Positions 16,360-62,980 of a DNA stretch of 64,000 bases are shown one piece after another. Below the pieces are notes generated by a model that saw only the letters and a program-made list of their open reading frames with translations, was not told the DNA's origin and ran no database searches. The stretch is from NCBI GenBank assembly GCA_964016885.1, contig OZ024745.1, positions 38,440,001-38,504,000 on the forward strand. The letters are read 5' to 3'. The DNA is from Eledone cirrhosa. Taxonomy: Eukaryota. The position numbers and the translations under genes are program-made. How positions within the stretch are numbered: the stretch's first letter is position 1; every line of letters begins with the position of its first letter.

Positions 16360-17938
16360 GTGGTGGTGGAAGGTGCAGTACGCCACCATCACGCATACAG
16401 ACAGACAACAGGTTTACCCATGGTATCCAGCCTATCGGGCCTGCTGGCCATCACCTACATGAACCAGCTAGAATGCCGAGCCCTCAACACCTGCCATCCC
16501 CATGCCTTCTTCACCCGATATGTAGATGACATACTCATCCTCACATCATCCCGTGAGGAGGCAGATAAAATATACACAACATTCTCCAGCATGGACGCCA
16601 GTATAAAGTTCAGCATGGAACACCCCGATGACCGCGGATCCTTATCCCTACTGGACTTCCAACTCAGGGTAACAGAGGAAGGCAACATCCACACCAGCTT
16701 CTATAAAAAAGCCGCCAGCAGGGACCTGTTCGTACATTTCAGATCGGCCCTCCCACTCGGTGCCAAGTTCGGATACATAAGGAACGAACTGGCACGTATC
16801 CGGAACAAATGCACCGCCGCTAGAGACCGAGACACACACACCACACATTTCCTGGAAGTACTCAAACTGAACGGATACACGACATCCACCACAAACCGTG
16901 CCAGAAAGAACAGAGGCAACCACACCCGAGGCACTAACACTTGCTTCCTGAAGCTCCCACACTTCAGTGAAGAAACAACAACAGCCATCCGCAGAGCCAT
17001 CAGACGAGAAGGACTAGATATCCAACACACTCCACCAGAAATGACAACTGCTGCAGACTAGCCAACTGCCCCATCAACGACACAGACCTATGCCACCAGG
17101 CTTACGTCGTATACAGACTAGAGTGTGACAAATGCAACAACTTCTACGTAGGTAGCACCACCAGACCACTCCACATAAGAATACAAGAACACCTCAATAC
17201 TAACGCTTCCTCATTTAAGAAACACCTAGTTAAATGCAAAAACACCGACAAAACCATAACAGTTAGGATAGAAACTAAGGAAAGAAACCTCGGCAAGCTT
17301 AGAATTAAGGAAGCACTAATTATAGATAAAACACAACTACCTATCAATAATAGACTAGAACTCAACACCCAATTTATAACCTGATAGGGCTTCTAGCCCC
17401 ATATTTACACACCCCATACACACACACGCACGCACACACAAACACACACGCTTACACCTCCACTTATTCTCTCTCACACATACACACACAAAACCAGTTC
17501 TAACACCAGATAACACCTATCCCTCACATTTACGAATAAACTTATCATCTCACACACACACACACTCACATACTTACACCTTCATGCATTCTCCCACACA
17601 CTTAAACAGGCATGTATATAAAAAAAACGCAAAAAAACCCTAAACAAATCCCTTTTAAAGGGAGACTACTCTTTATCCACCTAATTTTAACTCTTTGACA
17701 AAGAGATAGAACAGATACTCTATACTATTTCCTGTCAGCATGGCTTGGCAAGATATTTAGAACGCTGGTTTGAGACCTTTATTTCCCTCTGAAGAAGAGA
17801 TATTATCTCGAAAATTAAGGACGTTTAAAATAAATCTAAGGTAAAAGACCAATTGTCAACAATATCTTTTGCAATTGCATTCTTTTTTCTATGTCCATAC
17901 CTGCATTGATTTGGCTTTATTATACATATCCAAACGTT
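16360..17938 (+). mobile_element. Penelope-like element, 5'-truncated (RT + GIY-YIG + 3' pLTR with HHR)
   Basis: RQTTGLPMVSSLSG and TRYVDDIL in the RT. After a frameshift: Cys-rich linker CRLANCPINDTDLC, then VVYRLECDKCNNFYVGSTT..RIQEH..EALII..NN. Ends in (TA)n. Confidence 0.92.
17784..17822 (+). ncRNA. Minimal type I hammerhead ribozyme in PLE pLTR
   Basis: tccct CTGAAGA a-gagat att atctc GAAA AT TA agga. Stem III reduced to the palindrome AATT; stem I is short. Confidence 0.7.
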
Positions 17939-17988: not shown

Positions 17989-18060
<72 letters not shown>

Positions 18061-18065
<5 letters not shown>

Positions 18066-18286
18066 AACAAATAACGAAACGAAATTAAATTTCGTTTCGT
18101 TTGTAACTCACTTTTGTATGACTGACGCTTAAACAGTTAAGTTAAAAATGTACATCCACATATGTATACTGAAATACTAGTATGCATATGAATACACACA
18201 CGTATACATATGTAGATGTACCGAGTTTTTCACTGGTCACTTTACTGTGAGTGTCCAGCTATTCTGTATGTAAACACACAGACAAA
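18061..18286 (-). mobile_element. Fragment of the 465-nt retrozyme-like family (see 38313-38959)
   Basis: Near-identical in reverse to 38797-38959 continued by 38490-38541. Flanked by (TA)n. Confidence 0.88.
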
Positions 18287-18292
18287 AAAAAA

Positions 18293-22281: not shown

Positions 22282-23058
22282 GGAGGTGAGTTTTATTGTA
22301 GTACAATAAAGCAATGCAGATATCGGATAAGAAGCACTCTACAGTTTGTAGGACTGGAGTATACATAATATAAGATCAAAAGATGGTTAAAGGAGTTCCA
22401 TGTATTTTATTATGCGCATTTCAAAAACAAACATCATCATGCAATAATATTTGTGTTTTCATCAGATAAAACAGGAGAACATGATATGAAGGCTAAAAAA
22501 CACTTGTGGATAGTGCAGTTTTAAATCAACATATGAAAAGTGGTTTTAGATTGATGTGTGATATTGGGAAAAATATTTTGTTTAGAGAGGAGGGGGTGGA
22601 AAGGATGAAAAAGGGGAGGAGATGAGAGGGAGAGATGGGTGATAGAGAGAAAGAGATATATATATCTTCCTTCGTTAATTTTCAAATTCTTTTAATTTAT
22701 ACATTATCTTCCAACGGTTTTCAACCTCTCTATGTAAAACAATATATATTCTCTCAATTATAAAAACTATCTCTTTCTCTCTATCACCCATCTCTCCCTC
22801 TCATCTCCTCCCCTTTTTTATCCTTCCCACCCCCTCTCTAAATAAAATATTTTTCCCAATATCACACATCAATCTAAAACCACTTTTCATATGTTGATTT
22901 AAAACTGCACTATCCACAATTGTTTTTTAGCCTTCATATCATGTTCTCCTGTTTTATCTGATGAAAACACAAATATTATTGCATGATGATGTTTGTTTTT
23001 GAAATGCGCATAATAAAATACATGGAACTCCTTTAACCATCTTTTGATCTTATATTAT
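22279..23058. mobile_element. Fold-back HHR element with ~290-bp inverted arms
   Basis: 22365-22658 versus 22768-23058 are reverse complements. Flanked by (TA)n. Confidence 0.85.
22951..23019 (+). ncRNA. Type I hammerhead ribozyme (mirror copy 22404-22472 -)
   Basis: gttttat CTGATGA aaacacaaatattatt..gatgatgtttgttttt GAAA tgcgca TA ataaaat. Confidence 0.87.
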
Positions 23059-32864: not shown

Positions 32865-33051
32865 ACCCCCTGAGAAGCTCGGCTATTCATATACCAGGAT
32901 AAAAATGTTCATTTAGTCCAGAATTAGCCGTCGAAATGGCTTGAGCTCAGCCATCGGTGTCCTACTCGTTCCTATTACCCACTCTACTACCCTAAGTATT
33001 GAGTACTTTGGTGCGTTATGGTCCACCTGGTTCCTTACCACATTTCCTTCG

Positions 33052-33053
<2 letters not shown>
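32865..33053 (+). mobile_element. PLE-type 3' terminus with degenerate HHR (32865-32960); family also at 37408-37569, 38994-39085, 40653-40864
   Basis: acccc CTGAGAA g..cggcta/tagccg..c GAAA tggc ttgagctca gcca TC ggtgt. Shared tail gtgcgttatggtcca..tggttcctt..caca.ttccttcgtt(AT)n. Confidence 0.75.
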
Positions 33054-33089
<36 letters not shown>

Positions 33090-37260: not shown

Positions 37261-37602
<342 letters not shown>

Positions 37603-38300: not shown

Positions 38301-38312
38301 ACAGTTCGGTCA

Positions 38313-38954
38313 GTTTGTAACTCACTTTTGTATGACTGACGCTTAAACAATTAAGTTAAAAATGTACATCCACATATGTATACTGAAATACTAGTATGCA
38401 TATGAATACACACACGTGTACATATGTAGATGTACCGAGTTTTTCACTGGACACTTTACTGTGAGTGGATGTACATTTTTAACTTAATTGTTTAAGCGTC
38501 AGTCATACAAAAGTGAGTTACAAACGAAACGAAATTTTATTTCGTTTCGTTATTTGTTTTTATCGTCTCCGCTGAACCGGTACGTACTCACGCTCTATGC
38601 AAATTAGTCTGCCCACTACTAATTTTCATAGAAAAAGCATATAACGATATGTGCTTTTACGATTCTCTAGACAGGCCGGAAGATAGGTAAATATTGCTGA
38701 TGAGATGTAACAACATCGAAACTAGTCCACTATTCCTGTCTGGCTTTCTGGAGAATAGAGGAAAGGTGTTTCCTCGAAAACCAGTATGACTCTAAAAACC
38801 GGTTTGTCTGTGTGTTTACATACAGAATAGCTGGACACTCACAGTAAAGTGTCCAGTGAAAAACTCGGTACATCTACATATGTACACGTGTGTGTATTCA
38901 TATGCATACTAGTATTTCAGTATACATATGTAGATGTACATTTTTAACTTAATT

Positions 38955-38959
<5 letters not shown>
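38313..38959 (+). mobile_element. Retrozyme-like element: 465-nt monomer with terminal redundancy and inverted 5' piece
   Basis: gatgtacatttttaacttaattgttta occurs at 38468 and 38933. 38313-38467 is an inverted copy. One HHR. Ends in (TA)n. Confidence 0.85.
38690..38734 (+). ncRNA. Type I hammerhead ribozyme
   Basis: aatattg CTGATGA gatgt aaca acatc GAAA ctag TC cactatt. Stem I extends outward (agatagg/cctgtct). Confidence 0.92.
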
Positions 38960-38996
<37 letters not shown>

Positions 38997-39082
38997 CTTT
39001 TTCTATTACCCACTCTACTACCCTAAATATTGAGTACTCAGTTGCGTTATGGTCCAACTGGTTCCCTACCACAATTCCTTCG

Positions 39083-39122
<40 letters not shown>

Positions 39123-40579: not shown

Positions 40580-40652
<73 letters not shown>

Positions 40653-40656
<4 letters not shown>

Positions 40657-40864
40657 AAACAGTATGACCCCGACGGCAGAGCGCAAGCCGTTTCGACGGC
40701 TATTTCTGGGCTAAATTAGAATTTAGCCCAGAAATAGCCGTCGAAACGGCTTGAGCTCTGCCGTCGGGGTCATACTTTTTCCTATTTCCCACTCCCACAA
40801 CCCTCAGTATTGAGTACTCTAGTGCGTTATGGTCCATCTGGTTCCTTAGCACAATTCCTTTGTT
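40653..40864 (+). mobile_element. Copy of the 32.9-kb family with ~65-bp-arm hairpin
   Basis: 40653-40784 is a near-perfect palindrome containing only the HHR 3' half (GAAA cggc ttgagctct gccg TC ggggtc). In (TA)n. Confidence 0.87.
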
Positions 40865-41375
40865 ATATATATATATATATATATATATATTAGTGTTTTA
40901 TATATTTAACAAATTTATGGTGAAAATATTTTGCTAATCCTTTTTGTCACTTTCATAATTTTTAAGTCTAATGACGCAAATGGTTGTATCCTTGTTATCA
41001 CTTGGGAAACCTTACACGTATGGTGAATTGTAGCGGATAAACCCTGCAAGATTTCCATGTTTTCCTGTCCTAACATTACAATTGTTAGACACCGGGACAC
41101 ACATTGCATTACAAAGGAATTAGAAAGAAAATAGATACTAGTTTTTCATTGACTACACATTAGAGGTTTCTTTCCCTTATACGTTATAACGTTATCATAA
41201 GTTAATGTTTAGTTAACTATCATGAATTTATACTTATACTAACTTTGTCCATAGCTGGTGGTGATGGTAATACTCTCAGTACCTTTAAAACTGATATTAT
41301 ATGTATTCATAATCATCAAATACAGAAGTACGCCACCCATTACATTTGGTTTGGATAAAATTGAGTTCATTATAT

Positions 41376-42895: not shown

Positions 42896-43115
42896 CAATA
42901 TATATATATATATATATCAATACTATTATTGGAATTATCCCTTTAAATGAGTAGATACTTTCTAACGAGGAAAGCAAGCTATAGTCCTACTTTTATATAA
43001 CAGAAGCAGGAAAGAATTCATATGTTAAACTTTAAATAAGTCTTCAATAATTATACTCATCTCCTTATAGATTGTATTTAGGAAGTCTTTTCTTATTTTG
43101 TCATTTTTTTTTACC

Positions 43116-43729
43116 CGAATTATTAGCAGTACAGTGTTCGGCAAACATCGCTGCCCTATTTGTTCAACACTGACAAAGGAACGATGAAATAGTTTCTAGC
43201 TTATATCTGTCTTCAGCTATACATATATGTATGTACGTATACATACTTACATTTAAGTATCAGCCGTACTAAGAGTGAGAAATGAAATTTCATTTTTTCC
43301 ATTTATCGCGTTCGGTACGCCCGGCCGACTAAGTCACTCGATATACAAAATAGGCTGCTCAGACGTTAATATGCATACGAGAAGTATATACTTTCAAACG
43401 TTCAATCAACTGAGAGGAAGGTATACGGTGCTGATGACAGCTAAGAGGCTAGAAACTAGTTCATCGTTCCTTTGTCAGTGTTGAACAAATAGGGCAGCGA
43501 TGGTTGCCGAACACTGTACGGCTACTAATTCCGGCTGTTTGTTTACAAACAATCCGAGCATTATAATAAATGTTCGGTAAAACCATACATACATATATAT
43601 ATGTGTGCATGTATGTATGTATATACATACTACTGTATGTCTGTATACATATATGTATGTACGTATACATACTTACATTTAAGTATCAGCCGTACTAAGT
43701 GTGCGAAATGAAATTTCGTTTCTTCCATT

Positions 43730-43732
<3 letters not shown>
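43116..43732 (+). mobile_element. Retrozyme-like element: 426-nt monomer with ~88-nt direct terminal repeat and inverted 5' piece
   Basis: 43218-43306 is repeated at 43644-43732. 43116-43216 is the reverse complement of the HHR region. Ends in (TA)n. Confidence 0.85.
43425..43467 (+). ncRNA. Type I hammerhead ribozyme (degenerate mirror copy ~43181-43216 -)
   Basis: acggtg CTGATGA c-agct aaga ggct-a GAAA ctag TT catcgt. Extended stem gttcaa..ctgagaggaa / ttcctttgtcag..ttgaac. Confidence 0.85.
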
Positions 43733-43762
<30 letters not shown>

Positions 43763-61833: not shown

Positions 61834-62980
61834 CAATATATATATGGATGTATATATAATGTATTTTGCAATACACTTTATGCTTAATTAAAAGCATTTT
61901 CTCACTACTCTAAAACCATAGCATACGGTCTTCAAAATGCTTTTAATTAAGCATAAAGTGTATTGCAAAATACATTATATATACATCCATATATATATTG
62001 CTATTTCAGAGCTCCAATTCTAATTTTTAATTTCTGCCTGACCAACAACCCCTCTGTATAACCAGTTCCTGATTATTTACTAGAATTCTACAAGAATATA
62101 ACATCAGTGATCTCGGTAGACAGGAGGGAGTAGTTAACCTTGATAAGCATCAATAAATGCGAAACAAGGCCTTGTCGGCTTATCTCCCCTGTTTGCTGAG
62201 ATTAAAGAAAGTGGATTTGACACTACTCTAAAACAATAGCATACGGTCTTCAAAATGCTTTTAATTAGGCATAAAGTGTATTGCAAAATACATTATATAT
62301 ACATCCATATATATATATTGCTATTTCAGAGCTCCAATTCTAATTTGTAATTTCTGCCTGACCAACAACCGCTCTGTATAATCAGTTCCCGATTATTTAC
62401 TAGAATTCTATAAGAATATAACATCACCGATCTCGGTAGACAGGATGGAGTAGTTAGCCTTGATAAGCATCAATAAATGCGAAACAAGGCGGTGTCGGCT
62501 TATCTCCCCTGTTTGCTGAGATTAAAGTAAGTGAATTGGTCACTACTCTAAAACAATAGCATACGGTCTTCAAAATGCTTTTAATTAAGCATAAAGTGTA
62601 TTGCAAAATACATTGTATATACATCCATATATATATTGCTATTTCAGAGCTCCAATTCTAATTTTTAATTTCTGCCTGACCAACAACCGCTCTGTATAAC
62701 CAGTTCCTGATTATTTACTAGAATTCTATAAGAATATAACATCAGTGATCTCGGTAGACAGGAGGGAGTAGTTAGCCTTGATAAGCATCAATAGATGCGA
62801 AACAAGGCCGTGTCGGCTTATCTCCCCTGTTTGCTGAGATTAAAGTAAGTGAATTCGTCACTACTCTAAAACAATAGCATACGGTCTTCAAAATGCTTTT
62901 AATTAAGCATAAAGTGTATTGCAAAATACATTATATATACATCCATATATATATTGCTATTTCAGAGCTCCAATTCCCAA

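Follow-up and report, generated by a model that had tools for sequence, protein, structure and literature searches.

A probable non-LTR retrozyme copy in Eledone cirrhosa, its diverged sister family, a likely snRNA-type promoter and a Penelope-type insertion footprint

Positions 43116 to 43732 of the window (the whole 64,000-nt stretch of Eledone cirrhosa contig OZ024745.1 analysed here) raise the question of what kind of element they hold, how it relates to a 465-nt repeat near 38 kb in the same window, and which of its features were kept for RNA and which for DNA. Our answer, held with fairly good confidence, is a decayed 1.2-unit non-LTR retrozyme with an inverted arm, homologous to the 465-nt family. 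The element likely has an snRNA-type promoter of its own, and its insertion into (TA)n was likely the work of a Penelope-like element (PLE) that copied a predicted unit-length RNA. The parts of the locus, and the sister copy, are:

43114..43217, minus strand: inverted left arm, a copy of 43430-43534, with a damaged second hammerhead (43216-43192) and an outer end at neither fixed 3' site
43218..43306, plus strand: first copy of the 89-nt repeat, made of the previous unit's last 38 nt and a 51-nt tail
43256..43681, plus strand: full 426-nt B1 unit, from the tail start to the proximal 3' site, with 19 substitutions relative to the family consensus
43682..43732, plus strand: 51-nt tail that separates the proximal 3' site (43681) from the distal one (43732), with a GAAA..TTTC hairpin and a T-run
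43731..43759, no strand: (TA)n microsatellite, the insertion site
38305..38959, plus strand: copy of sister family A, with an inverted left arm (~38305-38467), a 465-nt unit and a hammerhead at 38697-38727

The locus consists of an inverted arm, then 1.2 units, then (TA)n, and the element is, judged by its sequence, a decayed copy of a 426-nt non-coding hammerhead repeat family, B1 (GC 37%). The direct repeat of about 88 nt that the earlier note had placed at the element's termini is real, measuring 89 nt (43218-43306 and 43644-43732, 95.5% identical, period 426); it is not terminal, being the stretch by which a 1.2-unit partial tandem overlaps itself, Penelope-type tail included, and a reading as LTRs or terminal repeats was rejected. 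The interval also takes in the inverted copy at its left end, which the earlier note overlooked. A coding function was discarded, the longest ORFs inside the element being only 69 aa, as was derivation from a tRNA-type SINE (ARAGORN found no tRNA gene in the element); plant-type LTR retrozymes, with a type III hammerhead and two LTRs of ~350 bp, do not match the type I topology and single ribozyme per unit seen here. The family A copy ends at the proximal site before (TA)n, and its hammerhead is canonical.

Other repeats share the window. A truncated family A copy lies on the minus strand at 18028-18290, within a long (TA)n tract; it has no hammerhead, and its end matches the distal site. At 32929-33056, 37406-37568, 39000-39087 and 40652-40867 we found 'element C', a (TA)n-flanked repeat with internal inversions, which at other loci frequently adjoins B copies and PLE ends and in which a motif scan revealed no canonical hammerhead. 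A 318-bp tandem repeat occupies 61902-62976 (3.4 copies, 95% matches), and a long inverted duplication spans ~22400-23010, with identical arms around 22465 and 22958.

The relationship between the 426-nt and 465-nt units was assessed on family consensuses computed by script from fetched genomic loci. A (465/466 nt) and B1 (426 nt) are collinear from end to end (296 of 473 columns, 62.6% identity; z 19.7 over 200 shuffles), with all of the previously named modules in the same order, and the proposal that the one is a diverged sister of the other is thereby borne out. Similarity is unevenly spread along the unit: the A-versus-B1 score was reached by 0 of 200 shuffles for each of the promoter block, the hammerhead and the TA/CA palindrome, sequence similarity was marginal in the tail (2/200) and in the TGTTTAC hairpin (4/200), and it was not significant in the spacer, both stem I arms and segment 227-275 (16-92/200); hairpin H4, too, fails to beat every shuffle. 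The exact B1 core occurs 905 times in the genome, so B1 has at least 905 copies; ACTAGT-type cores, which were sorted into subfamilies A1-A3 and B1-B3, number 23,699, against 2 for the reversed control. A further family, D (L141-L160), has a different hammerhead and is collinear with the A/B profile at 40.6 bits, a score that carries a high composition bias (31.7). Its units hold three to four octamer-type copies and a U2-like core, their hammerhead has a 3-bp stem III and a stem II closed by an A.A mismatch, and the family has 3,236 first-look candidates. Tandem arrays with consecutive complete hammerheads occur in A, where they are long, and in B2, and are absent in the window copy.

The ribozyme of the window copy comprises:

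43431..43461, plus strand: type I hammerhead core, with a C.A mismatch closing stem II, a 2-bp palindromic stem III and GUU; predicted cleavage after 43461
43400..43430, plus strand: 5' arm of the extended stem I
43462..43486, plus strand: 3' arm of the extended stem I

In the B1 consensus (27 units) stem II is closed by C.A, stem III has the palindrome ACTAGT and the triplet is GUU; family A closes stem II with a G-C pair and has GUC or GUU. The earlier note's single hammerhead sharing its ACTAGT stem III with the 38-kb element is present at 43431-43461, palindrome included; the two hammerheads are nevertheless not identical (C.A/GUU versus G-C/GUC), and the ribozyme is not single, a second, damaged one lying on the minus strand of the inverted arm. 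With its closing pair and cleavage site the B1 hammerhead is non-canonical around an intact core, and both departures may weaken cleavage. An Rfam search left it unlisted at E<=1, returning otherwise only simple-repeat miRNA matches, and gave the family A hammerhead a weak match (HH9, 28.6 bits, cut-off 52). Free folding of the window's hammerhead region prefers an alternative local pairing around the core, and for this reason the active fold is assumed from the motif. B2 and B3 have a U.U mismatch at the base of stem II. Hammerheads also occur outside these families: the 3' region of the PLE family P3 (L124, L125, L128, L133, L140), an autonomous Neptune-type element, contains a similarly built type I hammerhead in sense orientation, whose closing pair is U.U and whose stem III is palindromic, and no canonical hammerhead was seen in the Penelope-like families P1 and P2. 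At least four further hammerhead families (L082-L083, L127-L128, L067, L140, L300) have an unrelated stem II and no upstream octamer in the printed copies.

How copies reached their places was read from 60 B1 loci, which form the first part of the contig C1 list of exact cores (of 905), with neighbouring matches merged and two already-used places omitted. Their 3' ends fall at the proximal site in 21, at the distal site, 51 nt further, in 21, and elsewhere in 18; the 5' ends have no fixed place and lie anywhere between 4 and 531 nt before the core. Of the 42 fixed 3' ends, 34 are followed by (TA)n, versus 1 of 14 'other' ends. Inverted arms are present at 36 loci; at 12 of them each outer end coincides with a fixed site, and in 11 of the 12 one end is proximal and the other distal. 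The forward arm is longer than one unit in 24 of the 60 loci and stays below two full units in all 60, though a few carry two successive cores; a B1 source array of at least two full units was not seen in this set. Clustering of copy ends at the cleavage site was rejected (3' ends at +31 and +34 in only 2/60), as was clustering of 5' ends at the predicted transcription start, which was not seen in the 60 loci.

This pattern recurs in A and D, whose copies likewise show two 3' ends (with a tail of ~69 nt in A), and in the PLE families P1-P3, which end at two sites before (TA)n; autonomous PLE ends are also T-rich. According to the accessible text of a study of Penelope-like elements, such tails mark two internal reverse transcriptase (RT) start sites (Frangieh 2024, PMC11167929). 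The genome is rich in GIY-YIG elements (10,595 first-look candidates), RVT_1 is followed by GIY-YIG in three of four ORFs scanned, and the one RT + GIY-YIG ORF translated contains the CxxxxCxxC linker that the available part of another account ascribes to the Neptune and Nematis clades (Craig 2021, PMC8557442). B1 was therefore likely pasted into (TA)n by a Neptune-type Penelope-like enzyme. We infer this mobilisation from the footprint itself, because searches of 50 GIY-YIG loci with blastn and nhmmer detected, apart from simple repeats and retrozyme copies inserted there, no pseudo-LTR (pLTR) with homology to A or B. At L235, a U6atac-like copy and an inverted fragment of family D lie directly side by side, a hint that the two were joined while being reverse-transcribed.

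The insertion footprint held in common with PLEs, and the sense type I hammerhead of like build in P3, would also suit an origin of the families as direct deletion derivatives of one autonomous PLE's pLTR, on a model set out, as far as its accessible text goes, in 10.64898/2026.07.22.740005. We consider such an origin rather improbable, both in view of the missing pLTR homology in the 50 loci, a small sample of the 10,595 candidates, and because the region upstream in the P3 pLTR is of CCAAT/TATA type, without the 12-mer promoter element described below.

Which parts of the unit were kept as RNA was addressed through the following predicted structures, in addition to the ribozyme:

43493..43508, plus strand: hairpin H4, in all six subfamilies with changed sequence
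43516..43523, plus strand: 5' strand of the long-range helix P5, which pairs with tail positions 43688-43695
43536..43577, plus strand: hairpins H6 (the TGTTTAC module) and H7
43585..43669, plus strand: TA/CA-rich long palindromic hairpin, in which A>G changes cluster in one sister copy

A and B1 keep the same predicted fold despite differing at 38% of positions, the circular folds of both showing the same series of helices and modules (z -10 and -12). For compensatory pairs, the structure of one family was scored on the other in a sequence-only alignment, against a null that keeps the number of changed paired columns. The B1 structure on A1 gave 17 such pairs versus 7.7 expected (P 0.0004), 14 of them outside the hammerhead; A1 on B1 gave 15 versus 6.8, B2 on A3 20 versus 7.0 and A3 on B2 13 versus 6.6, and a control with slid partners 1-11. 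Alignment and covariation outside the hammerhead core, whose absence the earlier note would have counted against its own proposal, were thus both found. The signal comes largely from one deep split, A versus B; the B1-versus-B2 excess is borderline (P 0.06 and 0.018), and 30-48 pairs are broken per family comparison, partly through misalignment. Both strands of P5 have changed, with compensation, between A, B1 and B2, and the sense strand folds more stably than the antisense in 6/6 subfamily consensuses; a strand test that sets GU against AC gave no significant result (88 vs 72). From a MAFFT alignment of 17 copies, RNAalifold retrieved hairpins H4 and H6, stems I and II and some of the tail hairpin, with double changes in 25 of 77 pairs; a number of the pairs it predicts are probably spurious, and the long-range helices were missed because the tail was misaligned. 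Selection on RNA structure, as originally suggested, accounts for most helices; it leaves unexplained the most conserved module, which has an invariant 5' arm, shows no compensation and matches a host promoter.

Editing-like changes offer a separate view of the RNA. In the sister copy L268, A>G changes number 12 and T>C changes 0; of the former, seven are common to both arms, all in UA context, and four lie in promoter hairpins; each change is present in only 1-7 of ~85 loci. In L270, a weaker case, two A>G changes repeat in successive units of one arm and are missing from the other arm. L268 is the one clear case in 60 loci, and a family-wide A>G excess (125 vs 69) was gone after filtering (31 vs 18, P 0.15; 94 vs 99). 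The pattern in L268 points to copying from a single edited RNA, with the promoter sequence as part of that template.

Both inverted arms and AT-rich palindromes abound in this DNA and A forms long arrays, all of which would be compatible with a DNA-level satellite whose hairpins arose by template switching and palindrome formation, with no selection on RNA. We regard this as very improbable indeed, in the face of intact hammerhead cores with compensatory changes in stems I and II, the long-range helix P5, dispersed copies with fixed 3' ends, the sense-strand fold bias and the A>G clusters of L268. The module that covariation fails to explain has these parts in the window copy:

43342..43353, plus strand: U6-type upstream promoter element, an octamer-containing 12-mer, mutated at 43345 and 43350; 5' arm of a predicted hairpin
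43359..43363, plus strand: U1/U2/U5-type core (TCAG-pyrimidine), 26 nt before the TATA, with its last base mutated
43385..43391, plus strand: TATA-like box in a predicted hairpin; transcription would start at ~43412-43415 if the host spacing (TATA+30) holds

A paired motif singled out in the earlier note contains the octamer ATGCAAAT and occurs 25,359 times in the genome versus 7 times in the control. The same 12-mer is indeed in the A and B1 consensuses; the form quoted was a mutated version of it. The host promoters used for comparison come from L181-L183, L231, L237, L238-L249, L211-L213 and L310-L319. Three types of U6 promoter, the best U6atac match and RNase MRP carry the 12-mer at -76 to -78 and a TATA at -30 (5/5 selected), in a small, selected set that left out 3 of 12 distinct U6 upstream regions (L187, L194, L195) and 5 of 6 U6atac matches, where the element is missing at that place and which were judged to be probable retrocopies or interrupted genes. 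For the 12-mer, none of eight U1/U2 promoters exceeds 6.9 bits, and these have TCAGT at -56 to -58. U5 and U12 follow the U1 pattern, the 12-mer being absent from all 14 U1/U2/U5/U12 promoters, and the RNase P promoter has TCAGT (a Pol II-type core) and no 12-mer. Host snRNA promoters appear compact, with a Pol III-type 12-mer at -77, a Pol II-type TCAGT at about -57, and in both types a TATA at -30.

The 12-mer of A and B is identical to that of a host U6 gene; it scores 19.6 bits in both consensuses (0/300 shuffles), and that of D scores 15.3 bits (1/300). Its distance to the TATA is 42 nt in B, 43 in A and 45 in D, compared with 46-48 among the host's Pol III genes, and in all three the positions TATA+27 to +30 lie within the 5' arm of stem I. 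A Pol II snRNA core matrix from 14 genes gives B 8.0 and D 9.1 bits (reached by 0.3% and 0.2% of random windows) at U1-like spacing, the core lying 26 nt (B) and 29 nt (D) from the TATA; with a smaller matrix (8 genes) B is not significant (26-27/300 shuffles). In family A the Pol II core is missing (its -3.5 bits are reached by 21% of random windows), and scores among host Pol III genes run from -4 to -11. Upstream element, TATA and hammerhead core follow one another in this order at 17,642 places versus 0 in the control, with the B-type in all 100 among the matches listed. The octamer is intact in 27 of the 36 B1 copies that cover it; of the 19 substitutions of the window copy, two fall within the 12-mer and one within the core. 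In run X4, from another organism, B1-type sequence with C.A, GUU and an intact 12-mer dominates, and the A unit is deeply covered only over the promoter block; the public run X5 contains the whole A unit, which is not readable as expression.

The same module is predicted to fold. In A and B the 12-mer forms a hairpin whose 5' arm is invariant in six subfamily consensuses and whose partner arm varies with no compensation, the TATA region sits in a hairpin that carries a compensatory change, and family A has a second, inverted near-copy of the element (14 bits). If these hairpins are what was kept, then the module might serve only as an RNA hairpin or as a signal for a PLE protein, its likeness to a promoter being a relic or chance and transcription coming as read-through from neighbours. 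That possibility seems doubtful to us: uncompensated variation opposite an invariant arm is hard to reconcile with it, as are identity with the 12-mer of a host U6 gene at a similar distance from the TATA, the several 12-mer copies in D, and the restriction of deep coverage of the A unit in run X4 to the promoter block. Taken together, the best-conserved module is probably DNA-coded as well as an RNA hairpin, and is likely a DNA promoter that doubles as RNA structure.

As to the polymerase, the 12-mer suggests Pol III, and the core, its spacing and the need for read-through suggest Pol II. Each unit might be a U6-type Pol III gene that starts at stem I and stops at the T-run of the tail, only rare read-through giving unit-length RNA. 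Among host promoters the 12-mer belongs to those of U6, U6atac and MRP and is absent from the 14 of U1/U2/U5/U12 type, no other promoter piece is shared by A, B and D, and in every lineage the first stretch of at least four T downstream of the predicted start sits at the 3' ends or close to them. Even so, such stretches are not significantly depleted in the body of the unit (P 0.24-0.72), T-rich ends also occur in autonomous PLEs, the spacing between 12-mer and TATA is 3-5 nt short, and runs of T5/T6 would block the unit-length template needed by the copies and the L268 edits. We consider a Pol III gene somewhat unlikely on this balance, and lean towards transcription by Pol II with read-through.

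These observations suggest a cycle in which we infer transcription, the polymerase, cleavage, circularisation and the identity of the mobilising enzyme. In source copies of at least two units, the 12-mer, TCAG core and TATA would, from their match to host promoters, start transcription just ahead of stem I; the transcript would enter the next unit and be cut by the hammerheads, probably as dimers via the palindromic stem III. The unit-length RNA released would contain the promoter sequence, would probably be circularised, as known retrozymes suggest, and is predicted to fold into the conserved multibranched shape on which the covariation bears. A PLE endonuclease/RT might then cut (TA)n and start cDNA inside the RNA at two sites 51 nt apart, and cDNA often begun from both sides of the break would yield partial tandems and inverted arms. 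The same bases would serve as a promoter in DNA and as hairpins in RNA.

More broadly, and only tentatively, the A, B and D lineages (tens of thousands of copies) might be self-promoted RNA-circle genes, in which a hybrid snRNA promoter in DNA forms hairpins in RNA, ribozyme cutting and circular copying carry the promoter along, and a P5-closed fold places the RT at its two start sites. If true, an upstream-type promoter, normally lost in retrotransposition, travels with the element. The window copy itself is ordinary and probably inactive, and is likely a dead end because it combines a single intact ribozyme with a mutated promoter element. The wider interest lies in the families: where the transcription of animal retrozymes and the enzyme that copies them are concerned, sister families at 38% divergence offer a natural mutagenesis set that marks the kept helices, promoter bases and RT start sites. 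The comparison also defines compact U6-type and U1-type promoter elements of the host, which could drive small-RNA expression in this animal group.

The promoter of newt satellite 2 combines an octamer with a PSE. As the accessible portions of the relevant papers describe it, satellite 2 is a hammerhead repeat with an internal snRNA-type promoter (PMC2220036) and is transcribed by Pol II (PMC6765202); the elements described here resemble it in this combination (PMC2220036), and differ in a host U6-type upstream element joined to a U1/U2/U5-type core, an invertebrate host, three lineages and a PLE footprint. Like the hammerhead SINE-like repeats of Schistosoma, again on the available text, each unit holds both promoter and hammerhead (PMC6765202, PMC2220036). 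In those repeats the promoter lies at the 3' end of the cleaved unit, hence single copies are dead ends; they are reported to be Pol III-driven (PMC6765202, PMC2220036), whereas here there is no tRNA gene and the promoter resembles an upstream snRNA type.

Metazoan non-LTR retrozymes are portrayed, in the part of that account available, as dispersed and tandem non-coding, low-GC units with a type I hammerhead, for which PLEs were proposed as mobilisers (PMC7229834). B1 is, by its testable features, such a non-LTR retrozyme, with a type I hammerhead, a short low-GC non-coding unit, a stable predicted fold and dispersed copies, joined by tandem ones in A and B2 (PMC7229834), and the U.U mismatch of B2 and B3 has a counterpart at the stem II base of the axolotl HHR_Amex2 (PMC7229834). 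The present units are, however, at or above the reported size range (426-500 nt versus about 150-450 bp), B1 has the C.A closing pair and GUU, and the accessible text of that account describes no internal promoter, two-site ends or cross-family covariation (PMC7229834). With Neptune-type PLEs, to judge from what is available of two accounts, the families share partial tandems, a 5'-truncated copy in inverted orientation, a minimal hammerhead, targets that are AT-rich or (TA)n, and a pair of 3' ends separated by a tail (PMC11167929, PMC8557442). They differ in that B1 has no ORF and in a longer tail (51 nt, ~69 nt in A, versus 30-40 nt; PMC11167929, PMC8557442); TA microhomology to the target is seen at the present junctions, while no homology is involved where the Anolis element starts (PMC11167929).

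Vertebrate retrozymes, insofar as the accessible text goes, likewise co-occur with PLEs and comprise monomer-rich and multimer-rich families (10.64898/2026.07.22.740005); those derived from pLTRs differ from A and B, for which the 50 sampled loci held no pLTR homolog (10.64898/2026.07.22.740005). The same source reports that eight of nine predicted frog retrozymes failed to cleave (10.64898/2026.07.22.740005), and PLE footprints on retrozymes were anticipated there and in PMC7229834. A literature search, with subscription papers and Repbase mostly outside its reach, returned no report of these families or of their promoter layout. An snRNA-type promoter in a hammerhead repeat already has its precedent in newt satellite 2, as the available part of PMC2220036 describes it; new in the literature searched are covariation across the whole unit between diverged families, the hybrid promoter, and a hammerhead core with C.A and GUU.
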